A DNA stretch of 64,000 bases from Candidatus Cloacimonadales bacterium (GCA_963663475.2 CAXXJV010000001.1:352001-416000); one strand, 5' to 3'. Shown: positions 1,765 through 62,481, counted from the first letter of the stretch. The notes: generated by a model from the letters alone, not told the origin. Made by a program: numbers and translations.

Positions 1765-1839
1765 CCAGATTTGCGCAGTAGAACTTTGATAAAGAATACT
1801 AGATTCTGCTATTCGCAAAGGTCTGCTGCATTATTTGGC
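1765..1839 (+). mobile_element. Family A MITE, internally deleted copy
   Basis: Both termini are kept (CCAGAT...GCAGTAGAAC and GGTCTGCTGCATTATTTGGC). TTTAA flanks both sides. Confidence 0.7.
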
Positions 1840-1892
1840 TTTAATAATGTTTTTACATTTTTTTCTATCTTTCACTTCTAGCAAGAAAAAGT

Positions 1893-3158
1893 CTATTCCA
1901 TAACCCAATCTTCAAACATTGGAGAAATAATAACTATATTCCTAGCAAGTTCTTTTTTTATAGAATCACTGTCAAAATTGTCAAGTGTTAATCCTTGGCT
2001 ATTAAAAATATCTTTTGAGAATAGAGGTATTTGCTTTTCTCTTAACTTAATCTGTCCTTTGATATCAGAGAAAGTAAGCAAACCACATACCGTAACTGTT
2101 TCTCCCATGAAATTATTTTTTACTAGCTGAACTTCAGCTTTATAGGGAGAGATTAGCCCCTCAAGCTCTTCAGCAATTTGCTTAATATACTTCTGAGCTG
2201 AATAACCAGTAACAAATAAAAGATCCTCCTTAACTTCTGTTAAAATAAAATTAGCAAAAGACTCTTTTTCATACTGCCAGTTATCCAAGAGCATTCTCAC
2301 CATGCCAATACCATTTTCAATTTCATCAAAAGAACCATAATATTCTGCTTGTGGTATTGCTTTATCTGCCTTTATGTAAAACTCGTCAGAAGCATAAATA
2401 TAAGGGAAGTCCTCCCTATATTTATCAATAATTCTGATAACCTCTCCGGCTTGCTCTTGGCTAAATAGTGGTAATTCTTTTAACCCTTGTCGGTGCTTTG
2501 TTAACCCAACAGGAACTACCCCTACTCCTAAAGTAGCTAGGTCAGGACTAGACAAATCGGCTAAAGATTTTTCTAATTCTCTCCCATCATTAAGTCCTGG
2601 TACTAATACCAATTGAGTATGATAATCAATCCCATTATCAGCCAATTTTTTGAGAATAGCCATAATATCAAAATCTTGCTTATACCTCATCATCTCTTTT
2701 CTTAATCTTGAGTTTGTTGAATGAACTGAAATATAAAGAGGACTTATCTTCATTTGAATTATCTTATCTAGCTTTTGCGGACTCATATTTGTTAAAGTAA
2801 CATAGTTGCCATAAATAAAGGAGTAAGAATAATCATCATCCTTTACATAAAGAGTCTGCCTCATTCCCTTGGGCATCTGATCAATAAAACAGAATATGCA
2901 ATTATTCACACATTCACGACAATGATGGTCTTCTATTTCTATACCTAATGTTTCCTCATAAGTCTTACTTCCCTGTAAGATCAATCTCTTATTATCCCTC
3001 ATAAGTTCTATTTTCAATTGAGCTTCTGCTCCAAAAAAATTTAAATCAAGAAAGTCCTCAACAAATACATCATTTATTTTGAGAATTAAGTCATTCCTTT
3101 TGATTCCTATCTCATCAGCAAAACTCTGTAATTCAACTTCTTTTACAATTATAGCCAT
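1893..3158 (-). CDS. PDZ + radical-SAM-like DUF512 family protein
   Basis: N-terminal PDZ-like segment, CVNNCIFCFIDQMP motif, KDDDY and QI/EIENGIG-type motifs. Confidence 0.8.
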   Translation of the reverse strand: MAIIVKEVELQSFADEIGIKRNDLILKINDVFVEDFLDLNFFGAEAQLKIELMRDNKRLILQGSKTYEETLGIEIEDHHCRECVNNCIFCFIDQMPKGMRQTLYVKDDDYSYSFIYGNYVTLTNMSPQKLDKIIQMKISPLYISVHSTNSRLRKEMMRYKQDFDIMAILKKLADNGIDYHTQLVLVPGLNDGRELEKSLADLSSPDLATLGVGVVPVGLTKHRQGLKELPLFSQEQAGEVIRIIDKYREDFPYIYASDEFYIKADKAIPQAEYYGSFDEIENGIGMVRMLLDNWQYEKESFANFILTEVKEDLLFVTGYSAQKYIKQIAEELEGLISPYKAEVQLVKNNFMGETVTVCGLLTFSDIKGQIKLREKQIPLFSKDIFNSQGLTLDNFDSDSIKKELARNIVIISPMFEDWVME

Positions 3159-3257
3159 CTATTCCTCTATTTCTTTATAAGCTCTTCAATTAAGCAACTT
3201 GTTATAGTATTTTTTCAAATCAAGTATTATTACTTTTGATTATCATTTTCTCTTAAT

Positions 3258-3345
3258 CCCTATAATACTGTAGACTTTTTGGAGAGAGTGTAAATCCATC
3301 AAAAGAATATTAAGCTTTTCACAAAAGTCTACTCCATTATTTGGC
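3258..3345. repeat. Degenerate family A-like hairpin remnant
   Basis: CCCTATAATACTGTAGACTTTT...AAAAGTCTACTCCATTATTTGGC inverted ends resemble the family A termini. Flanks are TTAAT and TTGAT. Confidence 0.5.
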
Positions 3346-3359
3346 TTGATAATTATCAA
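3346..3359. promoter_or_regulatory. Perfect palindrome TTGAT-AATT-ATCAA (FNR/CRP-family-like box) upstream of the oxidative-stress operon
   Basis: Exact match to TTGAT-N4-ATCAA, about 100 bp upstream of dfx. Confidence 0.4.
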
Positions 3360-3455
3360 TTTTCTGAGTAAATGATAAATGTCCAGTTTTTTTAATTGCA
3401 TTTTTTCCAGATGCACTTATTATATATTTATAAAAATTATAAATAGGAGGAAAAT

Positions 3456-3836
3456 ATGACAAAATTAAGAGAAATCTATCACTGCCCAATCTGTGGAAAC
3501 GTTGTTGAATTAGTATATCCAGGACAACCAGCTCTAGTCTGCTGTAACGAGCCAATGAAATTATTAGAAGGTAAAACTGCTGATATGGCTACTGAAAAAC
3601 ACGTTCCAGTAATTGAAGAAAAAGACGGCGGTGTCTTAGTTAAAGTGGGTTCTACAACTCACCCAATGACTGACGAACATCATATTGCCTTTATTGAAGT
3701 ATTAACAAAAGACATGGTTTATCGTGCTGAACTTTCACATACCCAAGCACCTGAAGCCTTCTTCAATGTTAAAAAAGATGATATTATTGAGGCAAGAGAA
3801 TATTGTAATTTACATGGTCTTTGGAAAACAAGTTAA
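3456..3836 (+). CDS. dfx: Desulfoferrodoxin (superoxide reductase)
   Basis: CPICGN...CC desulforedoxin domain, then EKHVP, HPM..EHHI and CNLHGLW. AGGAGG RBS. Confidence 0.95.
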   Translation: MTKLREIYHCPICGNVVELVYPGQPALVCCNEPMKLLEGKTADMATEKHVPVIEEKDGGVLVKVGSTTHPMTDEHHIAFIEVLTKDMVYRAELSHTQAPEAFFNVKKDDIIEAREYCNLHGLWKTS

Positions 3837-3866
3837 TTTCAAAAAAAAATAGAGAGGTATTAAAAA

Positions 3867-4457
3867 ATGTCTTTAAAAGGAACTAAAACTGCTGAAAATT
3901 TAATGAAAGCATTTGCTGGTGAATCACAAGCTAAAAACAGATATGAATTTGCTGCTAAAACAGCTAAAAAAGAAGGATTTGAACAAATCTCAGCTATTTT
4001 CTTAGAAACAGCTTTAAACGAACAAGAACATGCAAAAATCTTCTTTAAACATCTTGTTAATAATGGTGTTGAAGGTGATGCAATTGAAATCACAGCCAGC
4101 TATCCTGCTGCTTGGGCTCAAAAAGATACTTTAAAAAATCTAGAGTATGCTGCTGATGGAGAAAATGAAGAGTGGACAGACCTCTATCCTGAATTTGCTA
4201 AAATTGCTGATGAAGAAGGCTTCCCACAAATAGCTGCTTCTTTCCGTGTTATTGCTAAAATTGAAAAGCATCACGAAGAAAGATATAGAATGCTCCATGA
4301 AAGAGTTAAAGCTCATGAAGTATTCAAAAAAGATGGTAAAGTTTATTGGAAATGTAGAAAATGTGGATACTTACATGAAAGCTTAGAAGCTCCTTCTATC
4401 TGCCCATCATGCTCTCATCCACAAGGATATTTTGAATTATTGTGCGAAAAATATTAA
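3867..4457 (+). CDS. rbr: Rubrerythrin
   Basis: [12 protein letters not shown] and EKHHE diiron motifs, with a C-terminal CRKC...CPSC rubredoxin domain. Confidence 0.95.
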
Positions 4458-4475
4458 TTTAAAAAGGGGATCTGA

Positions 4476-4616
4476 ATGGAAAAGTATCAATGTTTAGTGT
4501 GTGGATATATCTACAATCCGGCCGAGAATAATAATGTATCTTTTGAAGACCTACCAGAAGACTGGGTTTGCCCAGAATGTGGAGTAGGAAAAGATATGTT
4601 TGAAGTAATTGACTAA
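4476..4616 (+). CDS. Rubredoxin (46 aa, below the ORF-track cutoff)
   Basis: Manual translation [46 protein letters not shown] has two CxxCG motifs. AAGGGG RBS. Confidence 0.95.
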
Positions 4617-4705
4617 AAACTTATTATGAGTTAAGGATTGATTAGGATTTAGCATTTACTTTTCCATAAAGTTGCTGATATTTCCTTGTCAATTTAGGAG
4701 TACTA

Positions 4706-5158
4706 ATGACAAAATCTGAGTTTGATAAAGTAATTGAATTCGCTATTTTAAGAGAACAAGATGCTGTAGATTTTTATCATGAATTGCAAAATCATGCTAA
4801 GTTTGCAGACCAAAAACAAATGCTGATTGATTTCGAAAATATGGAAAAAGGTCATATAGCCATTCTTAAAAATATCCATAAGAAAGGTTTAGACTTTTTA
4901 GATCCTAATAAACCTTCTAACATGCAAACTAGTGATTACATGTTAGCTGATTATGATCAAGATAATCTGAGCTACGATAAAATCTTAGTAATTGCTATGA
5001 AAAGAGAAGAGTACTCTTATAAGTTATATAAAGATTTAGCAACTAAGTTCCCTGATACTGAAGTAGCTACTCTCTTTAATAACTTAGCTGCTGAAGAGAT
5101 TAAACATAAAAATCAATTCGCTGACATGTATGATAAACATGTTTTAAAAGATAATTAA
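4706..5158 (+). CDS. Ferritin-like / rubrerythrin-domain diiron protein
   Basis: Repeated AIxRE...Y...ExxH helices. Last gene of the oxidative-stress cluster. Confidence 0.8.
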   Translation: MTKSEFDKVIEFAILREQDAVDFYHELQNHAKFADQKQMLIDFENMEKGHIAILKNIHKKGLDFLDPNKPSNMQTSDYMLADYDQDNLSYDKILVIAMKREEYSYKLYKDLATKFPDTEVATLFNNLAAEEIKHKNQFADMYDKHVLKDN

Positions 5159-5182
5159 TTTAACCTGATCGTAATTATATAG

Positions 5183-5216
5183 AGCATAGCCTATTATTTT
5201 AGGCTATGCTTTTTTA
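5183..5216 (+). terminator. Rho-independent terminator
   Basis: AGCATAGCCT-loop-AGGCTATGCT followed by a T run. Confidence 0.8.
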
Positions 5217-5239
5217 CTTTTTAGTAAACAGTTAAAAAA

Positions 5240-5625
5240 GGCTCTTGTTCAAGTCTGGTGGGGATAATCCCAGATAGTGTAGTAGAGCTTTAGTGAAGAG
5301 TGCAGATTATTCTAGCAAAATAGCTTACAGAATTTTGACGCATATATTTTATATATTCGGAGAAATTATGGAAGCTACTTTTGCAGAAGAATATAGTGCT
5401 ATTCACAAAGGTCTACTGCATTATTTGGGATAATATAGGTAAATGAGAATATTTCATTACAATATTGATTCATCAAAAATCCCTGAAAGATAAGATGCTG
5501 ACTTGTGAAGGCGTAGCTTTAGCGAAGATTCAAAGTATCGCAAGCCTGGGTAATGATGGCTAGCCCAAAGATATTACCCTGTAAGGGTTTAATAAAACGA
5601 TAAATAATGTATTATTATAATAAGT
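5240..5625 (-). mobile_element. Family B MITE, partial reversed copy containing a family A copy and a family C insert
   Basis: Begins GGCTCTTGTTCAAGTCTGGTGG and then matches the reverse complement of about 13545-13740. Confidence 0.8.
5269..5429 (+). mobile_element. Family A MITE, full length (161 bp), nested in family B
   Basis: CCC...GGG imperfect inverted ends. ATAAT is duplicated on both sides; the corresponding empty site in the B copy ending at 13753 has a single ATAAT. Confidence 0.9.
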
Positions 5626-6489: not shown

Positions 6490-6685
6490 ATTATCCCCTT
6501 TTTAGCTTACCATTTTTTTATATCTGTTTCTCTTTTTATATATTTTACCACTAATGTCAAGCTTTATTGTTAACTTATTTTATCCTAGTATCTGAGACAA
6601 TTCATGAATTTATGAATTTATGGGTTTATCAACAACATGCTTATCAAGTTAGTTTTTTATTCTTGACCTTATTCATCCCCTACTC

Positions 6686-6762
6686 ATCCCTTACCCTTCC
6701 TTTACACTCTTTCGATGAAAGTCCAGGTTTCATCGAAAGAGTGTAAAGGAAGGGTAAGGGAT
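6686..6762 (+). repeat. Family E hairpin: perfect 35-bp stem with GTCCAGG loop
   Basis: ATCCCTTACCCTTCCTTTACACTCTTTCGATGAAA followed by its exact reverse complement. Further copies at 43230 and 61806. Confidence 0.9.
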
Positions 6763-6894: not shown

Positions 6895-7611
6895 ATGGTT
6901 GTTATTGAATTTAAAATACCACACGGATTAAAAGCCAAAGCTAGAAGAGAGGGATATTCTCTAGTAAAATATTCAAAACAGCCCTTTTATCACCTCCGAA
7001 AAAAAAATTCTCCTAAAATAGGGAAAAATCATCATAAGTTCCGCAATACCATGCAAGAACTAAAAATATCTTATAGAAAGCTTAATGATGCTGAAAAGCT
7101 AGCACTGAAAGAAAGGAGAAAAAAGGAAGGAAGTACTAAGTCAGACTGGATTCAATTTGTCAGAGAATATTATAGAGGGATTAGTCGTCAAGCTCTTAAA
7201 GAAAAAAGACAAGTAAAAGCTCAAAACAAGAAAGATCAAGTTAACAAGCCACAAAAAGGAATTGAAAGTAAGAATTTAAGAGAAATGAAGAGTGACGAGA
7301 CTTGCTCACGGAGTAGCGACTTCCGACAAATCAACTTATATTCGTCCGAAGTCCCTTGCCTAGGGCTGAGGAAGTCTGGTCTCCAACCCTTATTGACGGG
7401 AGTTGCTCACGTAGTAGCGACTTCCGACAGCTTATATTCGTCCGAAGTCCCTTGCCTACGGCTGAGGAACTCCGGTCTCAAACAACTCAGCGACTTCCGA
7501 CACTCTTCACCCGAAGTCCCTTGCCTAGGGCTGAGGAAGTCTGGTCTCCAACTCACTATTTCATCAACACTATTTTGTGAGTTTGAGATTTTCCCTCAAC
7601 TTCAAGCCTAA
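6895..7611 (+). CDS. Small basic hypothetical protein (about 130 aa) whose frame reads on through the family D repeat array
   Basis: Strong AAGGAGG RBS and Lys/Arg-rich N-terminus. From about residue 131 it translates the repeats. Overlaps the convergent gene by 56 bp. Confidence 0.55.
   Translation: MVVIEFKIPHGLKAKARREGYSLVKYSKQPFYHLRKKNSPKIGKNHHKFRNTMQELKISYRKLNDAEKLALKERRKKEGSTKSDWIQFVREYYRGISRQALKEKRQVKAQNKKDQVNKPQKGIESKNLREMKSDETCSRSSDFRQINLYSSEVPCLGLRKSGLQPLLTGVAHVVATSDSLYSSEVPCLRLRNSGLKQLSDFRHSSPEVPCLGLRKSGLQLTISSTLFCEFEIFPQLQA
7285..7552 (+). repeat. Family D REPIN-like array, 3 units
   Basis: Units of AGCGACTTCCGAC - short variable loop - (G)TCCGAAGTCCCTTGCCTAGGGCTGAGGAAGTCTGGTCTCCAAC. 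Confidence 0.85.
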
Positions 7612-9754
7612 CAAAATAAATACCAGAGCTTACACTAGTAGACTGTGAGTTTTTTCCATCCCAAACATAGCTATGATAACCACTATTCAATAAACCTTGA
7701 TATAAACTTGCTACTTTCTGCCCTTTCAAATTATAAACTGCTAGGTGACCATAAGCTTTCTTAGGAAGAATGAAGCTAATTTTAGTCTCTGGATTGAAAG
7801 GATTAGGATAATTTCTAAGTCCAAAAGCTGATTCACTTGCTGGAATAACATCATCATCTTGATTAGAAACACCTATTGGCAACATTGGTATATCTAAATT
7901 TAATTCTAAGGACTCCATTATCATTACATCAGATATTATTACATCTTGATAATCCCAGCGACTTGCCTTAACAGTATAAGTCCCTGCTCCACAATGATAA
8001 GTGTAATTACCTAAGCTGTCACTAAATTCAGGAAGCTTATCTATAATCTCTATCCTAACACAATCTAAAGGCTGATTAGTGCTTGCATCATAGACATTGC
8101 CACTAAAACCACCAATATAGACTGAACCATACTCATAGGCTCCAATATCAACTATATCAGGATTACTCCCGTTTGCTGAAGCGATTCTTTTATGGTAGCG
8201 TAGGTCAAAATCTGGTAAATCAGGACCATAAGCTCCAGCATCTCTACAAGGTGATGAAGGAGATAAAGAGTAATTATGATTTAAAGTATCTGCAAAAAGT
8301 GGGTCTGCGTAAAGATGATTTTCTGTATAGTAATATGATGGGTAATCGATAATTGGAATTGTCCCAAGGTTATTAAAAAATGAGGTAATATACCCCCCAG
8401 AGTTTCCTCCATAGCTAGTTTGTATATCAATTATGTTATTTGTAAATATCGACGCAGAGCTTCCTCTAGCAGTAATCAGCCAAGAATTGTTTACAAATGT
8501 ATTATTATAGATATATGGTGATGTATCATAAGTGTAAAATAATAGTCCCGCAGGAGAATCTGCTGTTTGTCGCACTAGATTATTAAAAACCCTGATTTGT
8601 CCATCGGGTGCTAATAATGAACGTTTTTCAAAATCCATCACACTACTAACATGTTCATTAGTTTCAATTATATTATTATAAATATATGCTTTATTATTAT
8701 CTCTTGTTTCAGCAGTAACTTGAACGTTCCCAAATAGATAGTTATCAGATAGATAATTTGTTCCAAAACCCCCAGAATATAGATTTATGGGATCTAAGTC
8801 AACTACATTCTTAACTAAAGTATTTTTCCTAGCAAAAACTACTTCAGTTGAATCACCAGAATGACAGCCCCAGCCTCTTTTACCATTATAGGCATAATTA
8901 CCGTAACTGCTTATTCTTCCAAAGTTTATTTCTCTAGTTTCGGTAGCATTTACTTCTGAGCCAAAATTATAATAAGTATTAAAAAGGAATAAAGTTATCA
9001 GGTAACCTCCCGAAGAAGGATAATCTGAAGGACCATTAAAGTAACATCTTGCAATAACAAGATTATAAGCTTCATTAGGAGGGTTTTCTTCTGAAGGTCT
9101 AATTGATAATGGTGTAGGATTCCCATGAGGTAGTGGATATATGTTTGTAGTGATGAATCTACATTTATAAACAACTAAATCCATATTCAAGTTTCTTGTT
9201 CTGAGACCAACACAATTATTTTCGAATGTGCAGTTTTTAACATTAATTAAACCATTAAGAAAATTAATTGCACCTCGATGCCCTCCATGTATATAATTGG
9301 GGGTTTCATTGGGGACATAATTTCCAATAAAGGTATGTCTGATTTCACAATACTCGAATGATGAAATAGGAGCCTCTGGTGTTAAAGCAATACCTCCCCA
9401 CTGGTATTCACTGCCATCTTGATATTTATCAAAAATAATTGGGTCTTCTGGAGTACCGATAGCATTGATTGTCCCGTTAACAACTATCATCTTAGCAACT
9501 GGCTGTGTGGTATTACTGTAACTCCAATCAAAAAGAGCAGGATAATTCATGTCTGCTCCACTAACTAAAATTTCAGTTCCAGGCATGATAGTAAGAGTAA
9601 CACCAGAATCTATATAGAGAAAAGAAGTAACTATATAAGGATCATTATGATGAGGATACCAAAGAGTATTCTCTGTGATATGACCTCCTACTTCTATGGA
9701 AAGAAGAGGAAAGGCAATAAGAACTATGATAAACAATAATATATTGTTCTTCAT
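7556..9754 (-). CDS. Secreted beta-helix-like protein with carboxypeptidase-regulatory-like domain and C-terminal sorting (T9SS type A / FlgD-Ig-like) domain
   Basis: Signal peptide, GTPEDPIIF and NNTFVNN beta-helix signatures, SPCRDAG...DIGAYEY, and a NYPNPFNP...SGIYF...KIVLMK CTD. Confidence 0.75.
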   Translation of the reverse strand: MKNNILLFIIVLIAFPLLSIEVGGHITENTLWYPHHNDPYIVTSFLYIDSGVTLTIMPGTEILVSGADMNYPALFDWSYSNTTQPVAKMIVVNGTINAIGTPEDPIIFDKYQDGSEYQWGGIALTPEAPISSFEYCEIRHTFIGNYVPNETPNYIHGGHRGAINFLNGLINVKNCTFENNCVGLRTRNLNMDLVVYKCRFITTNIYPLPHGNPTPLSIRPSEENPPNEAYNLVIARCYFNGPSDYPSSGGYLITLFLFNTYYNFGSEVNATETREINFGRISSYGNYAYNGKRGWGCHSGDSTEVVFARKNTLVKNVVDLDPINLYSGGFGTNYLSDNYLFGNVQVTAETRDNNKAYIYNNIIETNEHVSSVMDFEKRSLLAPDGQIRVFNNLVRQTADSPAGLLFYTYDTSPYIYNNTFVNNSWLITARGSSASIFTNNIIDIQTSYGGNSGGYITSFFNNLGTIPIIDYPSYYYTENHLYADPLFADTLNHNYSLSPSSPCRDAGAYGPDLPDFDLRYHKRIASANGSNPDIVDIGAYEYGSVYIGGFSGNVYDASTNQPLDCVRIEIIDKLPEFSDSLGNYTYHCGAGTYTVKASRWDYQDVIISDVMIMESLELNLDIPMLPIGVSNQDDDVIPASESAFGLRNYPNPFNPETKISFILPKKAYGHLAVYNLKGQKVASLYQGLLNSGYHSYVWDGKNSQSTSVSSGIYFVRLEVEGKSQTHKIVLMK

Positions 9755-10138: not shown

Positions 10139-10320
10139 ATGAGGAGTGACGGGAGTTGCTCACGGAGTAGCGACTTCCGACAAATCAACTTATATTCGTC
10201 CGAAGTCCCTTGCCTACGGCTGAGGAACTCCGGTCTCCAACTTAGCGACTTCCGACTGACATCTCTTTTGTCTTTCGTCCCAAGTCCCTTGCCTAGAGCT
10301 GAGGAAGTCCGGTCTCCAAC
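10139..10320 (+). repeat. Family D REPIN-like array, 2 units
   Basis: The first ~75 bp is nearly identical to 7285-7362, including the loop AAATCAACTTATATTC. Confidence 0.85.
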
Positions 10321-13275: not shown

Positions 13276-13753
13276 GGCTCTTGTTCAAGTCTGGTGGTAA
13301 ATAAGAGACTTTCATTATAGCATATTGCTTGAATAATAGAAAGTTACAAGTAAGAATATACTGTTAAGAGTATGTTTTGTTTGATGATAAGTACTAAATC
13401 CTGAAGGGATAAGTCTTAAATCCTCAAAGGGGATAAATAGTTTAGCCTAGGGTAAATTCCTGAAGGGAATGCAACCCTGGGTACTGGTGATGAAAAACAA
13501 AGCCTAACCCTGAAAGGGTTAAATAACATCATATATACCATAGACTTATACAATAATATATTATTTATCATTTTATTAAACCCTTACAGGGTAACATCTT
13601 TGGGCTAGCCATCATTACCCAGGGTTGCGATACTTTCAGCATCTTACCCTGGGCTAAATTATTTTATCCCTTTCAGGGATTTTTGATGAATTAATATAGT
13701 AATGAAATATTCTCATTTTCCTATATTATTCCCACCAGACTTGAACTTGAGCC
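13276..13753 (+). mobile_element. Family B MITE, complete (478 bp), 8-bp TSD AAAAGATC
   Basis: TIRs GGCTCTTGTTCAAGTCTGGTGG and CCACCAGACTTGAACTTGAGCC. AAAAGATC at 13268-13275 and 13754-13761. The interior has inverted CCCTGAAAGGG-type REP arms and no ORF. Confidence 0.9.
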
Positions 13754-21841: not shown

Positions 21842-22002
21842 CCCAGATAGTGTAGTAGAGCTTTAGTGAAGAGTGCAGATTATTCTAGCAAAATAGCTTA
21901 CAGAATTTTGACGCATATAATTTATATATTCGGAGAAATTATGGAAGTTACCTTTGCAGAAGAATATAGTGCTATTCACAAAGGTCTACTGCACTATTTG
22001 GG
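21842..22002 (+). mobile_element. Family A MITE, full length (161 bp)
   Basis: Near-identical to 5269-5429. TTAT on both flanks. Confidence 0.9.
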
Positions 22003-23866: not shown

Positions 23867-23981
23867 ATGAATGTTTGATAAATAGCTAATAATGAAACTA
23901 TAATATTAATCTAAAGTAGGACTACTAACAAAAAGTTACTCCACTATTTGGGTTAATTTCGCATGCTTAGTTTTTTATGAC

Positions 23982-28066: not shown

Positions 28067-28531
28067 GGCTCTTGTTCAAGTCTGGTGGTAAATAAGAGAC
28101 TTTCATTATAGCATATTGATTGAATAATAGAAAGTTACAAGTAAGAATATACCATAGACTTATTATAATCCCAAATGGTGCAATAGAGCTTTAGAGAAGA
28201 GTGCAAATTCTTTTAGCAAAATAGCTTGCAGAATTTTGACGCATATAATATATATATTCGGAAGAATTATGTAAGTTACTTTTGCAAAAGAATATTCTGC
28301 TATTCTCAAAGATCTATTACATTATTTGGGATAATACATTATTTATCATTTTATTAAACCCTTACAGGGTAATATCTTTGGACTAGCCATCATTACCCAG
28401 GGTTGCGATACTTTCAGCATCTTACCCTAGGCTAAATTATTTTATCCCTTTCAGGGATTTTTGATGAATCAATATAGTAATGAAATATTCTCATTTTCCT
28501 ATATTTTTCCCACCAGACTTGAACTTGAGCC
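28067..28531 (+). mobile_element. Family B MITE with internal deletion and a nested family A copy
   Basis: Both TIRs present. Flanks TATTTTTT and TATTTTTC match at 7 of 8 positions. The left REP arm is deleted at an ATATAC microhomology. Confidence 0.88.
28170..28330 (+). mobile_element. Family A MITE, full length, nested in family B
   Basis: CCC...GGG ends with an ATAAT duplication. Confidence 0.88.
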
Positions 28532-40629: not shown

Positions 40630-40672
40630 CCCGAATGGTGCAGTAGAACTTTGATAAAGAGTGATAGATTCT
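40630..40672 (+). mobile_element. Family A left end, interrupted
   Basis: CCCGAATGGTGCAGTAGAACTTTGAT matches the copy at 62320. Confidence 0.7.
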
Positions 40673-43021: not shown

Positions 43022-43229
43022 TCATTTTTTCTTTAACCCGAATGGTTTAATTATATATTTTCTAATTATTTTTCTATAAATACCATATTCTCAAAGAACT
43101 AGATTGAGTCAAGAACATTATATGATGATTATTAAGTATCTAGGATAGTTAATTTTTAGCAAGTTTCCTGAAGACTAATGTAGATTATAGCTTGAGAGAA
43201 GTGGGTGTTTAGTTTAAGCATGCTTAGTT

Positions 43230-43286
43230 CTTCCTTTACGGTCTTTCGATGAAAGTCCAGGTTTCATCGAAAGACTGTAAAGGAAG
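43230..43286 (+). repeat. Family E hairpin, copy 2
   Basis: 25-bp stem with the GTCCAGG loop and a compensatory change relative to copy 1. Confidence 0.88.
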
Positions 43287-43333: not shown

Positions 43334-43524
43334 CCCGAATAGTTGAGTAGAACTTTAGTAATACTTGACCAAAGCTTCGTATCACAGGTGAAGAGTGCTA
43401 GATTCTTTTAGCAAAATAGCTTACAGAATTCGCGCGCATATAACATATATATTCGGAAGGCTATGGATCTTACTTTTGCAAAAGAATATTCTGTTATTCT
43501 CAAAGGTCTAATGCATTATTTGGG
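43334..43524 (+). mobile_element. Family A MITE (161 bp plus a 30-bp family C insert)
   Basis: TTTAT duplication. Insert at 43360-43389. Confidence 0.88.
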
Positions 43525-46258: not shown

Positions 46259-46268
46259 TAGGACATTT

Positions 46269-47911: not shown

Positions 47912-48262
47912 ATGGAAAAATTATATTATACTATTACAGAAGTTAGTAAACTTTTAGATATTAAACCTTATGTCATAAGATATTGGGAAACAGAGTTTCC
48001 TCAAATACGCAGGAGTAGGAAAAGTGGGCGTAACAGACGCTATAATCAAAAGGAATATGAGACTATATGTATTATTAAAGACCTGCTTTATGACAAAAAA
48101 TATACAATTAAGGGAGCAAAACAAGCTCTCAAAGATAATGTAAATCCTCCAGTAAATGAGGCTGCTCCCAAAGAAATAACAAGTCCACAACAAGAATTAA
48201 AAAACATAAAAGATTTACTAGGAAAGATTAAAAAAATAGTAGAAGAATTTAAACACGAATAG
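47912..48262 (+). CDS. MerR-family transcriptional regulator
   Basis: KLYYTITEVS...IRYWETEF and YTIKGA. Confidence 0.88.
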   Translation: MEKLYYTITEVSKLLDIKPYVIRYWETEFPQIRRSRKSGRNRRYNQKEYETICIIKDLLYDKKYTIKGAKQALKDNVNPPVNEAAPKEITSPQQELKNIKDLLGKIKKIVEEFKHE

Positions 48263-48514
48263 TACATTTGAACTTTTGGTGAAGAGAGCTAGATTCTTTT
48301 AGCAAAATAAGATTCTGCTATTCTCAAAGATTTATTGCATTATTTTGGTTAAACCCAGATAGTGTAGTAGAGCTTTAGTGAAGAGTGCAGATTATTCTAG
48401 CAAAATAGCTTACAGAATTTTGACGCATATATTTTATATATTCGGAGAAATTATGGATCTTACTTTTGCAGAAGAATATAGTGCTGTTCACAAAGGTCTA
48501 CTGCATTATTTGGG
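48254..48514 (+). mobile_element. Tandem family A copies: degenerate 48254-48348 and full-length 48354-48514
   Basis: TTAAA occurs before, between and after the two copies. Confidence 0.85.
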
Positions 48515-50335: not shown

Positions 50336-50399
50336 CTCATTGATGCAGTAGAGCTAAAGAATATTCTGCTATTCTCAAAGATCTACTAACTTATTTGGG
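50336..50399 (+). mobile_element. Family A MITE, short deleted copy
   Basis: ATAAT duplication, with the right arm well conserved. Confidence 0.65.
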
Positions 50400-51047: not shown

Positions 51048-51053
51048 TGAAAG

Positions 51054-56467: not shown

Positions 56468-59400
56468 ATGAAAAAACTTATCTTTATAATGCTAATTATA
56501 GCCAATGTGTGGACACTCTTAGCAATAACTAAAGAGGTCATAGATAATGAGTCCCAGTTAATTATAGAAGTAACTAACAATGATTTTAAGATTTCTGATG
56601 AAGGAGATTTTCTTAGTATAACTGCCCCCAATACCTCTTCTGGTGGCCAAGCTGGACAAGCTAATATTCCTTATTATGTCATGCAATTATCTACACCAGA
56701 GAACTTTACTCCGCAAGTAAGTATAAATGTTTTAGAATCCAAAACTATTTCTCTGAGCAAGGCAATTCAACCAATACCTGATGTTGTAAAAGGTAAATCT
56801 ACAAACAGATATATTTATCAACTTAAAGAAGATAAATATAGAGAGAAATTACCTCAAATTCAGATTTCCCCAAATCAAAACTTTAGGTCTATATCTTTTA
56901 CAGAAATCAGATTTAACCCTTTTCAATACAATTATGATAATAAAACTTTGGAAATCATAACAAAAGCTGAACTTATTACTTGGATCCCTAAGTCTAAGAC
57001 TAAAGGCAAGCAGTTAGATAGACTTGAAAATGATTTTGTTACTGGATTAATTCAACCTGAAGAATACCATGTAGCTAAAGTAAAATACCGTGATATAAAC
57101 TTCAGTGATTTTTCTGTGGCTAATCACTGGTATAAAATTGAAGTTGACCAAGACGGTATCCAGGCTCTTACTTATAATAAGCTCCAGGACCTACTTCCAG
57201 TTGATGATATTGACCCAAGGAACTTTAGAATATTTACCACTGGTGGACAGAAGATGTATGAAAAAGAAGCAGATGCTGGCAATCCTTTTAGGGAAATACC
57301 TCTCTTAATTGAAGGTGAAGCTGATGGCTCTTTTGATAATAATGATAGAATTATTTTCTATGCAAGAGATAGAAATGATTATGATTACCTCAGTAAGTTA
57401 AGCGACTTCATGGCTATCAACCCCTATTCTGATAAGGGTATCTACTGGTTAACATTTGATGCTGTTTTAAGCTCCTTGCCCCTAAGAATGGACTATGAAA
57501 CTGATTTAACTTCTCCAAACATTACAAGAAGTAATAATCCCCAATCAAGTAGATATGAAAGAGAGTTTTATAAAAGGCTTCAGACTAATCTTTACTGGTA
57601 TTCAAATTTCTTAACAGGAAGCTCAACTACAACAAATTCCTTTGATTTATCTGTTTCTGATCTTGACCCTTCAGATAATAACGCCAACAGTAGAGTTAAA
57701 GCTGTCTTAATCGAAGAGTATAACGGATCTTCCTATTCCTCTAAAAGACATGAAGCTTATCTGTCCCTTAACAACCTAAAAGTTTCTGATAATAATGTCT
57801 GGTATGGCTACACTTACAAAGAAATCATAGGTCAAGCTAACAATCTTACCAACGGTAATAATAGTGTTTCTGTTACTATTGAAAGAAATAGATCTGATAA
57901 TCTCTATCTTGATTATATAGAAATTCAATACATAATGAAAAATATAAAACACTCAGGCAAGCAATTAGGTATTAATTTTAGAGATGAAGATCTTGGCCAA
58001 ACTATTAGATATTCTGTAGAAGGATCCTTTAGTTCAAATACAAGAATCTTCTCAACTAATGATATCTATGATGTGAAAATGCTTAACTATTCTCTGCAAG
58101 GTAATTCCCTCAGATTCAATGGCTTTACCCCCTTTTCTAACCTTAATAAATCAGAATACTATGTGCCTAAATTCTACGTTACCAACAATGACTACCTTAC
58201 ACCTAATATTGAAGCTGTTGAACCTGTAGATATAATTTCTCAGTCCCTTAATAAAGAAAGTATCATTATTTATCCTAATGACTTCTCTGAGCAAGCCTTG
58301 AGACTTAAAGCTATCTACGAAAATATTTATAATTCACCAACAGTAGCTCTTAACTTGACAGATATTTTCAACCAGTTCTCTGGTGGAATGGATGATCCTA
58401 CTGCTATCAGAAACTTCCTTTCCCATCTCTATAGCTTAGAAGTTGGTAAAAACTTGCATTATGTAACTCTACTAGGTATTGGTACTTATGATTGGAAAAA
58501 CTATAAAGCCTTTTCTGCTGATAAAAATCAAATGATTATCTATCAACAAGGGAACTCCTCAACTAATGATGCTGTAACTTCTGATGACTATTTTGCTTAT
58601 CTTACTCAAAACAGATTCCCTGAACTTGCCATAGGTAGATATCCAGCTAAAAATCAAAATGAATTAAACATGATGCTGGATAAATTTGAAGTATATTCAA
58701 ATAAAGACTTTACTATTGACTGGTGGAGAAATACAGGCCTCTTTGTAGCTGATGATTTGAAAAATGGTACTGCTACAAATGAGACTAGTCATACTGTCCA
58801 GCTAAATCAAGCTATAGATAATGCTCCTCCGTCTCTCATTAATGAAAGAATTTATGCTTATCTCTATGAACCTGACGAGTTTGGTAAGAAACCAAATGCT
58901 CGTAAAGACTTTATTGACGCTATAAATCAAGGAGCGCTTTTAACTTATTACTCAGGACATGGATCTTATGACCAATTAGGTACTGAGGCTTATTTCCGCC
59001 AAGGTATTGACACTCCCCTCCTCACAAACGACCTAAAAAGAACTTTCTTTATATCAGCAGCTTGTGATGTTTCTCAGTTCGATAGTCCTGACTTTGATTG
59101 TTTATCTTCTGATCTACTCAAATATGATGCTGGCGGTGCTATTGCAACTTATGGATCTACCAGACTTTGTTACATTCCAAACAATAATATTATGGTAGGA
59201 AATCTCCTATATTTTGCTTTAGATAATAGACATGATATTGGTACTGCTATTATGCTATCAAAGACAAGAGAAACATCTTCAGATTCTAATACCATAAACC
59301 AATCTAAATATATACTCTTTGGAGATCCCCATCTGGAAATAACCCCTCCTGAAAGCAGAAATAATATTGTATTTGAAAATAATACAAACTCTTTCAAAGC

Positions 59401-60349
59401 TAGAGAGACTGTTAAGTTCTCAGGGGAACTAGCTTCTACTAATATCCAACTAGCTAAAATCTTAGCTTTTCAATCTGATACTTTTACCAGTTTGGGGGGT
59501 CGAGATATACTCCTACCTGGAAACTATATCTTTAATGGTCAAACAAGTTTAACTAATGGTCTATACTCTTCAGCCTTTGTTGTACCTGATGATATAACTG
59601 ATGGAGAATTAGGTAAAATATTAGTTTATGGTATAGATGAATCTAGTAATCAAGAGTTTTTGGATTATTATTATCCGGTAGAATTTGCTGGTCAAAGCTC
59701 CAATATTGTAAATGATTCACCACCAGAAATATCACTTTGGTTAGAATCATACGACTTCAGAGAGGGAGATGTAGTTTCCCAAAATCCACTGCTCCTTGTT
59801 GAAATTAGTGATGAGAACGGAATTAATGTTTCTGGTGGTTCAGGACATCAACTACTCTTAATGATAGATAATGACTTCAATTCTTATGACATTACTCCAT
59901 TTTTCAAATATGATATTGATTCTTATCAGTCTGGTAAATTAGAATATCTTATCAATGACCTTAATCCAGGTAACCACATTCTTAAAATACTAGCTTTTGA
60001 TAACCTTAATCAACCATCTGTAAAAACTACAAGCTTTAAAGTTAGTGATTCATCTGAAATTTCCATCTCAAACATCCTACCTTACCCAAACCCTATGCCT
60101 AAAAGTGGAGGCGATTTTACCTTCATGCTTAGTAGTGATGCTGAGATAAATATTGATATCTATACCTTTACTGGTAAAAAAATTAATAGTCTCAAATCAT
60201 TTGCCACTAAAGGCTTTAATACAGTTAGGTGGAATGGCAGAGATAAATCAGGGGACCAACTGGCTAATAATACTTATTTCTATATCATTAAAGCTACTGC
60301 TGAAGGGAAAAGTGTAAGTAAGAGAGAAAAATTTATAATACTAGATTAA
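56468..60349 (+). CDS. porU: PorU-like peptidase C25 (gingipain fold) putative sortase with C-terminal sorting domain
   Basis: WYKIEV..DGI, NPYSDKGIYWL, SDDYF, IGRYP, YSGHG, AACDVSQFD, LFGDP and YPNP CTD. Start moved to the ATG giving the MKKLIF signal peptide. Confidence 0.75.
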   Translation: MKKLIFIMLIIANVWTLLAITKEVIDNESQLIIEVTNNDFKISDEGDFLSITAPNTSSGGQAGQANIPYYVMQLSTPENFTPQVSINVLESKTISLSKAIQPIPDVVKGKSTNRYIYQLKEDKYREKLPQIQISPNQNFRSISFTEIRFNPFQYNYDNKTLEIITKAELITWIPKSKTKGKQLDRLENDFVTGLIQPEEYHVAKVKYRDINFSDFSVANHWYKIEVDQDGIQALTYNKLQDLLPVDDIDPRNFRIFTTGGQKMYEKEADAGNPFREIPLLIEGEADGSFDNNDRIIFYARDRNDYDYLSKLSDFMAINPYSDKGIYWLTFDAVLSSLPLRMDYETDLTSPNITRSNNPQSSRYEREFYKRLQTNLYWYSNFLTGSSTTTNSFDLSVSDLDPSDNNANSRVKAVLIEEYNGSSYSSKRHEAYLSLNNLKVSDNNVWYGYTYKEIIGQANNLTNGNNSVSVTIERNRSDNLYLDYIEIQYIMKNIKHSGKQLGINFRDEDLGQTIRYSVEGSFSSNTRIFSTNDIYDVKMLNYSLQGNSLRFNGFTPFSNLNKSEYYVPKFYVTNNDYLTPNIEAVEPVDIISQSLNKESIIIYPNDFSEQALRLKAIYENIYNSPTVALNLTDIFNQFSGGMDDPTAIRNFLSHLYSLEVGKNLHYVTLLGIGTYDWKNYKAFSADKNQMIIYQQGNSSTNDAVTSDDYFAYLTQNRFPELAIGRYPAKNQNELNMMLDKFEVYSNKDFTIDWWRNTGLFVADDLKNGTATNETSHTVQLNQAIDNAPPSLINERIYAYLYEPDEFGKKPNARKDFIDAINQGALLTYYSGHGSYDQLGTEAYFRQGIDTPLLTNDLKRTFFISAACDVSQFDSPDFDCLSSDLLKYDAGGAIATYGSTRLCYIPNNNIMVGNLLYFALDNRHDIGTAIMLSKTRETSSDSNTINQSKYILFGDPHLEITPPESRNNIVFENNTNSFKARETVKFSGELASTNIQLAKILAFQSDTFTSLGGRDILLPGNYIFNGQTSLTNGLYSSAFVVPDDITDGELGKILVYGIDESSNQEFLDYYYPVEFAGQSSNIVNDSPPEISLWLESYDFREGDVVSQNPLLLVEISDENGINVSGGSGHQLLLMIDNDFNSYDITPFFKYDIDSYQSGKLEYLINDLNPGNHILKILAFDNLNQPSVKTTSFKVSDSSEISISNILPYPNPMPKSGGDFTFMLSSDAEINIDIYTFTGKKINSLKSFATKGFNTVRWNGRDKSGDQLANNTYFYIIKATAEGKSVSKREKFIILD

Positions 60350-60359
60350 TAGAGGAAAA

Positions 60360-61379
60360 ATGCTAAAACAAAATAAAAGAGTAATAGAAAAAAATCTATC
60401 TCTTAAGAAGATTAATAACCTAATCTTAGGAAACACATCACGTCTTATTTCTAATTTTACTCATAAGAGCCATATTTGGGGTTATCCGACCGCTGTAATG
60501 ATTGAACCGACCAATATATGCAATTTGAAATGCCCTCTTTGTCCATCTGGAAATGGGACTCTTAAGCGAGCTAAAGGATATATGAAATTATCACTCTTTA
60601 AAAAAGTGATAGATGAAATTAAAGATTACTCAACTATGGTTATTCTGTGGAATCAAGGAGAACCTTACCTCAATCCAGAGATTAACCAAATGATTAAGTA
60701 TGCAACTGATGCGGGACTATTCACCTTAATTTCTACAAACCTTAATGCTGATATGGATGCTGAAGCAGTAGTTAAATCAGGTATCGACAGTATGATTGTT
60801 TCTCTTGATGGAGCCACTCAGGAAACTTATAATCAATATAGGGTTAATGGAGAATTGGATAAAGTGCTAGCTAATGTAAAAGCCCTTGTGCAAGCAAAAA
60901 AGAAACTTAATTCTCCAAGTCCAATAATTAGATGGCAATTCCTTGTCATGAAACATAATGAGCATGAAATTGAACAAATAAAGCAGATGGCTAAAGAACT
61001 TGAAGTTGATCAACTCAGCTTTAAAACAATCCAAATCTATACTAAGGAAGATATTAAATTCTTACCTGATAATCCTAAGTATAGACGCTACAATATCTCA
61101 GGAAATGATTTTGAAATTAAGTTTAAAATGGAAAATAAGTGCCGAAGAATGTGGCAACAACCAGTTGTAAATTGGAATGGTGATGTTGCTATTTGCTGCT
61201 TTGATAAAGATATTGATTTCCCTGTAGGCAATGTAAGAGACCAATCATTACTATCAATCTGGCATGGGAAAGATTTTCAAAAGATGAGAAATGCAATTCT
61301 TACAAATAGGAAAGCCTTTGAAATCTGTAGAAATTGTGGAGAAGGTGTAAAGTTAAGAATTCAAGAAAAGAATAACTAA
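60360..61379 (+). CDS. Radical SAM protein with SPASM/twitch domain
   Basis: CNLKCPLC, GEP and C-terminal CRR..CCFD..C..C. Confidence 0.88.
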   Translation: MLKQNKRVIEKNLSLKKINNLILGNTSRLISNFTHKSHIWGYPTAVMIEPTNICNLKCPLCPSGNGTLKRAKGYMKLSLFKKVIDEIKDYSTMVILWNQGEPYLNPEINQMIKYATDAGLFTLISTNLNADMDAEAVVKSGIDSMIVSLDGATQETYNQYRVNGELDKVLANVKALVQAKKKLNSPSPIIRWQFLVMKHNEHEIEQIKQMAKELEVDQLSFKTIQIYTKEDIKFLPDNPKYRRYNISGNDFEIKFKMENKCRRMWQQPVVNWNGDVAICCFDKDIDFPVGNVRDQSLLSIWHGKDFQKMRNAILTNRKAFEICRNCGEGVKLRIQEKNN

Positions 61380-61384
61380 CTAAT

Positions 61385-61634
61385 CCCAGCTAGTGTAGTA
61401 GAACTTTAGTAATACTTGGCTAAAGCTACGTATCACAGGTGAAGAGTGCAGATTATTCTTCTGCAAAATTAAACCCAGATAGTGTAGTAGAGCTTTAGTG
61501 AAGAGTGCAGATTATTCTAGCAAAATAGCTTACAGAATTTTGACGCATATATTTTATATATTCGGAGAAATTATGGAAGTTACTTTTGCAGAAGAATATA
61601 GTGCTGTTCACAAAGGTCTACTGCATTATTTGGG
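61385..61634 (+). mobile_element. Family A partial copy with C insert (61385-61468) followed by a full copy (61474-61634)
   Basis: TTAAA duplication around the full copy. Insert at 61411-61440. Confidence 0.88.
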
Positions 61635-61805
61635 TTAAAACTCCTATAAGGGGTGCAGGCTACTGGCAAAGTCAAATTCTCTGAGCCCTGGAAGGACGAC
61701 ATTATTATTGCATTCTCAGATGTTAACAGAATCACCGTTCGAAGTCCCTTACCTAGCATTGAGAATGGTCAACTTTTGTTTAGCAATTGGCCTTTCCTTG
61801 CTTAT

Positions 61806-61866
61806 TCCTTTCTTTACACTCTTTCGATGAAAGTCCAGATTTCATCGAAAGAGTGTAAAGGAAGGA
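61806..61866 (+). repeat. Family E hairpin, copy 3
   Basis: CTTTACACTCTTTCGATGAAA-GTCCAGA-TTTCATCGAAAGAGTGTAAAG. Confidence 0.88.
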
Positions 61867-61968
61867 TTAGGGATGCAATAGTCTATTTTTATAAATTTAT
61901 CCCGAATAGTGCAGGAGAGCTTTAGAGAAGATTTCAATAATTTTCTGCAAAAGTAAGCTAGGTAAATT

Positions 61969-62195
61969 GGCTCAAGTTCAAGTCTGGTGGCAATAATATA
62001 GGAAAATGAGAATATTCATTACTATATTGATTCATCAAAAATCCCTGAAAGGGATAAAAAATAATTTAGCCCAGGGTAAGATGCTGACTTATGAAGGCGT
62101 AGCTTTAGCGAAGATTCAAAGTATCGCAACCCTGGATAATGATGGCAACCCAAAGATATTACTCTGTAAGGGTTTAATAAAAGGATAAATAATGT
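61969..62195 (-). mobile_element. Family B partial reversed copy with family C insert
   Basis: Right TIR GGCTCAAGTTCAAGTCTGGTGG. Insert at 62088-62118. Confidence 0.85.
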
Positions 62196-62319
62196 AAAAA
62201 AAAAGCCAACATCTTACATAGGTTTATTTTCCTAAACAAGTGTTGGCTATATATTTATTAAATCTTAAATTTATAGATTGAGCTAGTAAATACTAAGCAA
62301 ATCTAAAAATTTCAATTAA

Positions 62320-62481
62320 CCCGAATGGTGCAGTAGAACTTTGATGAAGAGTGCTAGATTCTTTTAGCAAAATAAGTTACAGAATTTGAAGGCATATAAT
62401 ATATATATTCCTGAAAATTATGTAGCTTACTTTTGCAAAAGAAGATAGTGCTATTCGCAAAGGTCTACTGCATTATTTGGG
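62320..62481 (+). mobile_element. Family A MITE, full length
   Basis: ATTAA duplication. The right-hand ATTAA contains the ackA stop codon. Confidence 0.88.

Follow-up and report, generated by a model that had tools for sequence, protein, structure and literature searches.

A hairpin MITE of IS1380 descent whose orientation follows replication direction in Candidatus Cloacimonadales

Double-stranded DNA is regarded as the substrate of DDE transposons, which in themselves carry no information on the replication strand. One DDE element, Tn7 with TnsE, makes 5-bp duplications and has a single insertion orientation with respect to lagging-strand synthesis; it is large and autonomous, its ends are TGT..ACA, and one of its proteins is dedicated to targeting. 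Hairpin-forming MITEs of bacteria include Correia, RUP, ERIC and Nezha. Elements of the IS1380 family have 'CC' ends and 4–5-bp duplications (ISfinder). We came across no publication that describes a DDE MITE oriented by replication, or replication polarity or one-strand wobble pairing in such hairpin MITEs, and the words orientation, lagging and leading strand are absent from the available parts of two MITE reviews (PMC10969869, PMC3184786). For IS1380-family insertion sequences (ISs), the accessible portion of PMC3971601 gives a replication-orientation bias in few or no chromosomes.

The repeat described here, family A, resembles Correia, RUP, ERIC and Nezha in being small, intergenic, bounded by terminal inverted repeats (TIRs), folded as one long hairpin and present in high copy number. 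With Tn7 plus TnsE it shares the DDE ancestry, the 5-bp duplications and a single replication-linked orientation, but the size, autonomy, TGT..ACA ends and targeting protein of Tn7 set the two apart, and to our knowledge IS1380 elements have no TnsE-like targeting protein. As in attC sites of sedentary chromosomal integrons, the palindrome is imperfect and one of its strands, when folded, is the functional form; however, a tyrosine recombinase acts on those sites within one array, and family A consists of a transposon scattered over about 300 loci. A fork-coupled orientation and a strand-specific hairpin are shared with IS200/IS605 and its palindrome-associated derivatives, as described in the part of PMC5027513 available to us, but family A has variable 5-bp duplications and a DDE parent as well as TIRs, and the polarity is opposite, the foldable strand being the leading-strand template and not the lagging-strand template. 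An IS200/IS605-type single-stranded element, which lacks TIRs and target duplications, goes in 3' of a fixed tetra- or pentanucleotide and has its active strand on the lagging-strand template, does not fit the TIRs, the 5-bp duplications and this strand assignment. REP/REPIN-RAYT systems, 20–40-nt GC-rich palindromes with a RAYT gene, likewise do not fit an AT-rich element of 161 bp with target duplications; four Y1_Tnp genes are present in the genome, with no visible link to family A.

The window, which is the whole 64-kb stretch analysed, holds 15 family A loci detected by nhmmer, 14 on the + strand and one ambiguous (Table 1). Seven full-length copies in one orientation had been listed in the earlier note, and nhmmer places 7/7 at the same positions and 7/7 on the + strand, with 121–181 bits against 32–62 bits for the opposite strand. 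The deleted copies were said to share this orientation, which holds for six of those listed, judging short remnants by nhmmer scores and repeat-family alignments, and the one at 61901 is ambiguous.

Table 1. Copies and remnants of family A in the 64-kb window.
Position	Strand	Feature	Evidence
1765..1838	+	Mini copy (~74 bp), both termini and hairpin tip deleted	Repeat families D2, D3; nhmmer 1782-1838, 27.7 bits
3300..3344	+	Right-end remnant, absent from earlier list	nhmmer 23.8 bits, model positions 116-160; D2/D6
5269..5429	+	Full-length copy, 161 bp, flanks ATAAT/ATAAT	nhmmer 181.3 vs 61.6 bits
18663..18706	+	Right-end remnant (18609 in earlier note)	nhmmer 21.5 bits
21842..22002	+	Full-length copy; orthologous site empty in G006, occupied in G004	nhmmer; ortholog comparison
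23917..23956	+	Weak right-end-like remnant, membership uncertain	Repeat family D6 only; below nhmmer threshold
28170..28330	+	Full-length copy, third subfamily, inside B element, ATAAT flanks	nhmmer 159.7 bits; D8/D11 flank copy
40630..40672	+	Left-end remnant	nhmmer 21.4 bits, model positions 1-42
43334..43524	+	191-bp variant, 30-bp insert in left arm, TTTAT flanks	nhmmer 121 bits
48256..48348	+	Deleted copy; right-hand TTAAA common with next full copy	nhmmer (48256-48310); D2 48286-48353
48354..48514	+	Full-length copy, 100% identical to two other C1 copies, TTAAA flanks	nhmmer
50353..50399	+	Right-end remnant (50336 in earlier note)	nhmmer 25.3 bits
61385..61469	+	Deleted copy of insert-bearing variant, adjoins next copy	nhmmer; D13
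61474..61634	+	Full-length copy, TTAAA flanks	nhmmer 181.5 bits
61901..61968	.	Remnant, orientation uncertain	nhmmer '-' 22.0 vs '+' 20.3 bits; D3 aligns 61897-61943 as '+' left end
62320..62481	+	Full-length copy, 162 bp, second subfamily, ATTAA flanks	nhmmer 155.3 bits

In the 3.3-Mb genome nhmmer detects 304 family A loci, 119 of them full-length, and with a length of 156–193 bp the element is short, non-coding and dispersed, as a MITE should be. The orientation is not random but switches at the GC-skew minimum (~0.61–0.70 Mb) and maximum (~2.2–2.4 Mb). The switch points on contig C1 are the minimum and maximum of the cumulative GC skew and agree with how the four 16S genes are oriented, so the tie to replication direction that had been suggested for the window is borne out for the chromosome. 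The top strand, which is the foldable one, lies on the nascent-lagging strand, i.e. the leading-strand template, at 209/259 C1 loci (binomial p 2.7e-24), and 87/103 full-length C1 copies have the same polarity (binomial p 5.4e-13), as do 37/45 loci on contig C2; the MITE is ~81–84% polar. All around the genome it is the leading-strand template that folds, with a reversal of orientation at both origin and terminus. That the flanking genes have no influence on orientation, as the earlier note claimed for the window, is confirmed by a bias in all four gene arrangements (38:11, 37:6, 49:19 and 84:14), and only 62.7% of the genes are leading-strand genes. Five other repeat families of the same genome have no orientation bias. 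Near the terminus, family A orientation marks a mismatch of ~150 kb with the GC skew. Local GC skew was considered as a better predictor of orientation than the replichore and was rejected (163–179/259 against 209/259 C1 loci). Strand mis-calls in a palindrome, segmental duplication or base composition might create such a bias, and the element is indeed palindromic, with an nhmmer match also on the opposite strand at 157/304 loci, but an artefact of this kind is hardly credible: full copies show large score gaps (~180 vs 60 bits), copies are dispersed across 3.3 Mb, the top strand is G-rich (GC skew +0.14 to +0.27) and yet lies on the C-rich strand of the genome, contrary to composition, and the same pattern is seen in five other assemblies.

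These are five closed relatives, including a member of another genus, where the element blocks run opposite to 20/20 16S genes, so that in six genomes, from two genera, orientation tracks replication. This conservation, together with the intergenic position of 258/259 C1 loci, could be expected if the one-strand hairpin served replication, repair or chromosome handling in place, in the manner of KOPS or Chi, and were kept in orientation by host selection. We regard such a host function as improbable, as close relatives differ in their insertions, copies suffer decay and truncation, private substitutions show weak constraint, no match to family A was found in one congener or in 4/4 searched genomes of the sister genus, and the family behaves as a selfish burst.

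An IS1380-family IS gave rise to family A, a non-autonomous MITE that inserts by DDE transposition with a 5-bp duplication. It has the CC(C) termini, the AT-rich 5-bp duplications and the DDE parent of ISEcp1 and its relatives. Clean CC..GG ends were called by nhmmer in 73/119 full-length copies, 51/73 of which have an exact 5-bp flanking repeat and none a longer one, the targets being AT-rich and nearly palindromic (TTTAA, TTAAA, ATAAT and similar). At the site orthologous to the 21842 copy, G006 has a single TTTAT and G004 has TTTAT-element-TTTAT. Four DNA read runs gave no clean empty sites; short-read contigs break at repeats, and the joints are repeat-to-repeat. A congener, G002, contains seven identical copies of a 1.70-kb IS with an ORF of 469 aa that matches NF033539 (IS1380 family) over model positions 1–416 of 419 (E 1.1e-51; 175.8 bits, just below the 180-bit cut-off) and PF13701 with 90.9 bits, above the 34.7-bit cut-off. 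The terminal 13–16 nt of this IS are common with the MITE right end (16 nt at the IS right end), and its copies are flanked by 5-bp TTTAA or TTAAA duplications. The earlier note had regarded DDE-style duplications as an unusual combination with a strand-specific structure; the duplications are real, but given the IS1380-type parent there is no paradox. The note had also proposed a search for a transposase gene with the same ends, and such a gene is found in G002 but not in this genome, where PF13701 has no match, the G002 transposase gives a best tblastn E of 0.13 and the whole G002 IS has no blastn match at E <= 1e-3. End motifs 0.6–4 kb apart gave no recurrent transposase unit as an autonomous partner, and the multi-copy ISs examined (~2.37 kb with IstB-like AAA matches; ~1.47, 1.65 and 1.69 kb) were ruled out by unrelated ends. 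The parent transposase occurs in 16/232 genomes of the phylum, with several intact copies only in G002; the G002 enzyme is, by sequence, a candidate mobiliser of the MITE. The G002 IS copies are oriented three leading, three lagging and one ambiguous; with six informative copies, the polarity is specific to the MITE and not to the parent IS. Unlike IS1380-family ISs, the MITE is polar and keeps a one-strand hairpin.

Folding agrees with the earlier claim that the whole element forms a single long imperfect hairpin, the arms giving a stem of ~70 bp; RNAalifold gave almost no consensus structure, and the MFE of subfamily consensus sequences and alignment folding were used instead. The top strand folds better in 117/119 full-length copies (DNA dG -31.3 vs -22.6 kcal/mol), and in 19/19 copies of the other genus it is the more stable. 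In both left-end variants the mismatches of the terminal 18 bp, at pairs 4/158, 5/157, 8/154, 9/153 and 12/150, are all G.T or T.G on the + strand, as had been noted, and with G.T counted the 18-nt inverted ends pair at 18/18 positions. The proposed excess of G.T over A.C holds throughout the stem, with 775 vs 101 cells (119 copies x 68 pairs), and in a two-genus alignment of 28 sequences with 180 vs 3. Neither outcome that the earlier note had named as a refutation, random orientation elsewhere in the genome or the lack of a G.T excess, was thus observed. The same alignment has compensated pairs at 14/56 positions and standard pairing in 98.2% of cells on the top strand vs 86.9% on the bottom strand, and the G.T positions partly differ between the two genera. 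Pairing is kept on one strand only, through G.T wobbles and compensatory changes. The excess is not mutational in origin, because private substitutions on the top strand (G>A 160 vs C>T 62) would yield A.C. Selection on one single strand is therefore supported, by the G.T excess, the compensatory pairs in two genera and a post-insertion mutation spectrum running in the opposite direction. Private substitutions favour G.T weakly (102 vs 72), indicating little selection on resident copies.

The earlier note left it open whether the selected strand is DNA or RNA. The wobble-only asymmetry with near-complete standard pairing is a classic RNA signature, and with RNA parameters the dG is -60.5 (top) vs -42.2 kcal/mol (bottom), as expected if a long G.U-containing hairpin of a top-strand transcript were selected as an sRNA, an RNase III substrate or a stabiliser. 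With orientation tied to replication rather than to transcription, however, RNA is the less probable candidate for the single strand; flanking-gene direction has no effect, transcription of the top strand would meet the fork head-on, Rfam gave 0 matches at gathering score in the 64-kb window, and a scan of one copy, weak for this phylum, detected neither a sigma-70-like promoter nor a terminator. Selection at the RNA level thus appears very improbable, slightly more so than a host function.

The best explanation of the whole, which we hold tentatively and at a little under an even chance, would be sorting by loss, in which copies with the foldable strand as lagging-strand template vanish. The foldable strand would be the active strand of the element, and as lagging-strand template it would become single-stranded at each passage of the fork and fold. 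A folded copy might then be excised or deleted by transposase acting on the stem, a rebuilt duplex of the inverted repeats, or alternatively be lost by slippage over the hairpin between the 5-bp repeats. Because exposure of the foldable strand would lead to excision or deletion, survivors should build up where that strand is protected and the exposed strand bears the A.C mismatches. The same orientation logic has been described for the attC sites in sedentary chromosomal integrons. In favour of loss, the bias tracks asymmetry: copies with ddG <= -12 kcal/mol are in the minority orientation in 0/30 cases, and strand asymmetry is smaller in minority copies (-5.9 vs -9.2 kcal/mol, p 0.006), an effect that is confounded with copy age (rho -0.83). 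Against it, SbcD (TIGR00619) had no match in this 99%-complete genome (one model, one genome), so that the classical hairpin nuclease route may be missing, the weak G.T preference of private substitutions points to little selection on resident copies, the IS orientations come from six informative copies, the genome has three identical copies and ~20 at 98% identity or more while lacking an IS1380 transposase, and re-insertion of a folded single strand with a 5-bp duplication is not accounted for.

Polar insertion is a less probable explanation, possible but on the unlikely side, in which an asymmetric transposase–MITE complex, with its diverged left end, would capture targets at the fork, for example through the beta clamp or lagging-strand gaps, and so insert in one orientation like Tn7 with TnsE, and rearrangements would later erode the bias. 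The youngest C1 copies (>= 175 bits) are polar in 23/24 cases, as are 19/19 C1 copies at >= 98% identity, and the minority share climbs with copy age from 1/24 to 3/11, a trend that polar insertion with later rearrangement would also produce. The right end retains IS sequence and the left end is variant in every subfamily, and an IS1380-derived peptide binds the beta clamp in vitro, according to the part of PMC3971601 available. Weaker hairpins were not found in the 16 full-length minority copies (top strand -30.4 vs -31.1 kcal/mol in the majority, not significant), and this retained stability argues against a strong purge of hairpins. Polar insertion, however, gives no account of the one-strand G.T differences, which include the inner stem far from transposase sites, nor of the compensatory pairs; several minority copies lie where local GC skew is not inverted; and replication bias is lacking in the six informative G002 copies and, as far as the available text of PMC3971601 goes, in IS1380-family ISs generally. 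Loss and polar insertion are not separated by the present data, because even identical copies can be old enough for either process to have acted.

The data suggest a cut-and-paste transposon that is being sorted by the replication fork: in two genera and at least six genomes, a DDE-derived MITE is arranged by replication direction, and it bears a clear signature of selection on one folded strand. The element may be moved as a single strand or may merely be filtered as one. More speculatively than loss itself, a DDE lineage related to IS1380/piggyBac could have gained a single-stranded hairpin phase, with the G.T pairs as a strand selector coupling mobilisation or survival to the fork-exposed strand; it would then be a DDE-based system that has converged on IS200/IS605 and attC biology, and might reflect a general sorting rule for asymmetric hairpin repeats. 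If hairpin exposure on the lagging-strand template sorts the copies, the principle known from attC and IS608 would also cover a third class of mobile DNA that is unrelated to those two, the elements, which trace the replichores in these MAGs, would provide a sequence-only marker of fork direction for uncultured genomes, and family A would offer a simple system for studying the tolerance of bacterial chromosomes for imperfect palindromes.

A profile made from six of the seven full-length window copies of family A, the ~161-bp hairpin MITE, located 15 loci in the window, 14 of them on the + strand. All seven full-length copies named in the earlier note were found where it had placed them and on +, with an aligned length of 161-162 bp, the copy at 43334 containing a 30-bp insert. 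Bit scores of full copies are about 121-181 on + and 32-62 on -, so their strand calls are safe despite the palindrome. A common orientation of all window copies is thus borne out for 14 of 15 loci, the remnant at 61901 being ambiguous (- 22.0 vs + 20.3 bits) and aligned as a + left end by a repeat search. The whole 64-kb window matched no Rfam family at gathering score, and it also encodes a PorU-type sortase. The genome assembly (3.30 Mb, G+C 33%) consists of two contigs, C1 of 2.90 Mb and C2 of 0.40 Mb, and an nhmmer search gave 461 matches that merge into 304 family-A loci, of which C1 carries 259 and C2 45; 119 of the 304 are full-length, and 258 of the 259 C1 loci are intergenic.

Along C1 the orientation changes from + to - and back to +. 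Cumulative GC skew is lowest at 613,270 and highest at 2,218,350, the four 16S genes (243 kb -, 984 kb +, 1,401 kb +, 2,452 kb -) are all directed away from the minimum, and 62.7% of 2,067 long ORFs are on the leading strand when the replichores are set by skew; 16S direction and ORF strand bias thus mark the minimum as the origin region and the maximum as the terminus region. The family-A top strand, the foldable strand that reads as + in the window, is on the negative-skew strand at most C1 loci (209 of 259, p 2.7e-24) and in most full-length C1 copies (87 of 103, p 5.4e-13). The negative-skew strand is the leading-strand template, identical in sequence to the nascent lagging strand. Mapped genome-wide against GC skew, the orientation therefore is not random but flips with the replichore, in line with the possible tie to replication direction in the earlier note. 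C2, the second replicon (403 kb, cumulative skew minimum at 28.8 kb and maximum at 377.8 kb), has a positive skew over about 350 kb and looks from it as if replicated mostly one way; family-A orientation agrees with the skew at 37 of the 45 C2 loci and in all 16 full-length C2 copies.

Six of the 16 full-length copies in the minority orientation, against the replication-linked majority, are no more than about 75 kb away from one of the two switch points. GC skew is flat at 613-700 kb, one switch region of C1, and the other switch (2.35-2.41 Mb) trails the skew maximum (2.218 Mb) by about 150 kb, a mismatch suggestive of an inversion or of a terminus that varies or has moved recently. The dnaA gene (C1:1434495-1434977) is ~0.75-0.8 Mb away from the origin region as placed by GC skew, 16S direction and gene strand bias. 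Two copies, C1:31712 and C1:1648812, have identical flanks on either side, and one of the two is a minority-orientation copy next to a 1.69-kb IS. This suggests a segmental duplication that took a copy into the other replichore.

When the flanking genes were classed by fork direction, the bias was present in all four arrangements (see the table), confirming that orientation is independent of flanking-gene direction. Although rich in G (GC skew +0.14 to +0.27), the top strand is found on the C-rich strand of the genome. The bias follows replication, not transcription or composition. Five other families of interspersed repeats in this genome are unoriented, among them the B element (about 110 loci), which is longer than family A, is often host to family-A insertions, and by its lack of replication bias provides an internal control. 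The family of 58-nt perfect hairpins has about 95 loci and equally stable strands (-29.4 vs -28.7 kcal/mol), and two of its three window copies are within about 100 bp of family A; the short D7/D10 repeats have 83-90 loci. The exceptions are the small family D11 and a REP/BIME-like family of short GC-rich hairpins in tandem arrays (62 loci), which could be another repeat sorted by replication independently of family A. Four Y1_Tnp (IS200/RAYT-like) genes are present in the genome, as are 16 copies of an IstB-like AAA ORF of ~245 aa, 12 of them within ~2.37-kb repeats that are possibly IS21-like.

Orientation counts and coordinates of family A and other repeats (coordinates are those of the window unless a contig is named)
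Feature	Coordinates	Orientation	Remark
Family A, both flanking genes with fork	C1	84:14	
Family A, both flanking genes against fork	C1	38:11	
Family A, divergent flanking genes	C1	37:6	
Family A, convergent flanking genes	C1	49:19	
Family-A mini derivatives, 75-105 bp	C1:775444-775522; C2:115170-115249; 1765-1838		examples
B element, TIR-bounded	13276-13753; 28067-28531; 5491-5611; 62077-62196	60:50, 54:48, 41:41	unoriented
D7		32:37	unoriented
D10		36:39	unoriented
D7/D10 short repeats in window	7285-7552; 10139-10320		either side of gene 7556-9754
D12/14		26:29	unoriented
D9/S3, symmetric 58-nt hairpin		49:32 and 46:34	listed unoriented, weakly skewed
D9/S3, 58-nt perfect hairpin, in window	6695-6752; 43229-43286; 61807-61864		
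D11, small family		19:7	exception
GC-rich REP-like array family	seed C1:55830-56342	46:13 on C1, p 2e-5	exception

Of the six congeners searched, five contain family A, as does another genus of the same family; it was not found in the other taxonomic families searched, giving 7 of 31 genomes including this one. In the closed genomes of five relatives (G002, G003, G004, G006 and G008) the listed copies are again in strand blocks, and by our own tabulation the copies flanking 20 of 20 16S genes are predominantly on the strand opposite to the gene. The copies in G008, which belongs to the other genus, are about 77% identical, and the top strand folds better in 19 of 19 full-length ones. The orientation pattern is real, genome-wide and conserved in relatives.

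The top strand is more stable than the bottom strand in 117 of 119 full-length copies, with mean folds of -31.3 vs -22.6 kcal/mol by DNA parameters and -60.5 vs -42.2 by RNA parameters. The wobble pairing that the earlier note described for the + strand prevails over A.C in the stem as a whole, where 68 pairs in 119 copies give 6,617 Watson-Crick, 775 G.T, 101 A.C and 476 other cells, and the consensuses of the three main subfamilies contain 7, 7 and 5 G.T pairs and 0, 1 and 0 A.C pairs. From an alignment of 28 copies from six genomes in two genera, RNAalifold gave 56 pairs, 14 of them compensated on both sides. Standard pairs make up 98.2% of the 1,568 cells, vs 91.2 +/- 0.4% after shuffling (none of 500 shuffles as high) and no more than 47.6% with the partners slid. 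The same alignment contains 180 G.T and 3 A.C, which leaves the bottom strand able to pair in only 86.9% of cells. G.T is found at 12 positions of one genus and 14 of the other, 7 of them in common, which indicates independent renewal of the asymmetry. The bias is much smaller among changes private to one copy (from Watson-Crick, 102 to G.T and 72 to A.C), and the direction of private top-strand substitutions (160 G>A, 62 C>T) would yield A.C. The G.T excess is therefore selected and not mutational, with selection mainly in propagating lineages. Selection at the RNA level on the top strand would fit the G.U signature, but as orientation is independent of transcription we regard it as very improbable. 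Of the strand-specific ssDNA or RNA structure tied to replication that had been proposed, the replication tie and the one-strand pairing stand, with ssDNA the likelier of the two forms.

Family A is an IS1380-derived MITE. No element combining its ends with a transposase was found in its own genome; the transposase gene with such ends that the earlier note had proposed to search for is present in the congener G002, as part of a 1.70-kb IS that PF13701 located in seven identical copies. The ORF (469 aa) exceeds the PF13701 cut-off and matches the whole of NF033539, the IS1380-family transposase model, with E 1.1e-51 and 175.8 bits, slightly below the curated cut-off of 180 bits. Each end of the IS starts CCCAAATAATGCA, and its right end has 16 terminal nt in common with that of family A, which retains the IS sequence there, while the family-A left end differs by transitions only, reading as G.T on the top strand. 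Four IS copies inspected all have a 5-bp duplication, TTTAA or TTAAA. In family A, an exact 5-bp repeat flanks 51 of 73 copies with clean ends (TTTAA 15, TTAAA 10, ATAAT 7, and others), 39 of the 51 being nearly palindromic, and the site orthologous to that of the copy at 21842 is a single TTTAT in G006 and TTTAT-element-TTTAT in G004. These repeats and the empty site bear out the DDE-style target duplication. Among 232 genomes of the phylum only 16 have the parent transposase, several copies of it truncated or stop-broken.

Relative to the replichores of G002, traced from MITEs and 16S genes, three IS copies are co-directional, three head-on and one ambiguous. A survey of IS orientation places IS1380 among the families for which few if any chromosomes show bias (p 0.20, 0.34, 0.67), although it reports binding of an IS1380-derived peptide to the beta clamp (PMC3971601). 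The polarity is a property of the MITE, not of the transposase family. In IS200/IS605 elements the active strand is the lagging-strand template, the reverse of the family-A polarity, whereas the attC sites of sedentary chromosomal integrons agree with it. Since the polarity is MITE-specific and attC-like, we favour sorting by hairpin exposure after insertion. A foldable strand serving as lagging-strand template would form a hairpin at each fork passage, the folded copies would be lost by excision or deletion, and survival would be left to copies that expose the A.C-bearing strand, which folds weakly. In agreement with such sorting, the minority orientation is absent from the 30 copies whose strand asymmetry is -12 kcal/mol or more, the asymmetry of minority copies is smaller (-5.9 vs -9.2, p 0.006), and 16 loci have lost the hairpin tip roughly symmetrically with both termini kept. 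Several of the mini derivatives have common breakpoints (model positions 36/37 to 113/114), and the tip-deleted loci may thus be a mobile mini-subfamily.

Other results count against such sorting: the top strand of minority copies folds as well as that of the majority, strand asymmetry is confounded with copy age (rho -0.83), the minority share grows with age from 1/24 to 3/11, and SbcD (TIGR00619) had no match in the 99%-complete genome, although the control search gave hits in 13 of 14 reference genomes. Re-insertion with duplication is also left unexplained. Polar insertion at forks is a serious rival, but would not account for the inner-stem wobble and compensation. The mechanism is probably one of these two, sorting after insertion or polar insertion.

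Full-text searches of the literature outside subscription journals turned up no replication-oriented DDE MITE, and term searches of two MITE reviews (PMC10969869, PMC3184786) found neither orientation nor lagging, leading strand or replication fork. What is new is an IS1380-derived MITE that combines a replication-locked orientation with one-strand pairing.
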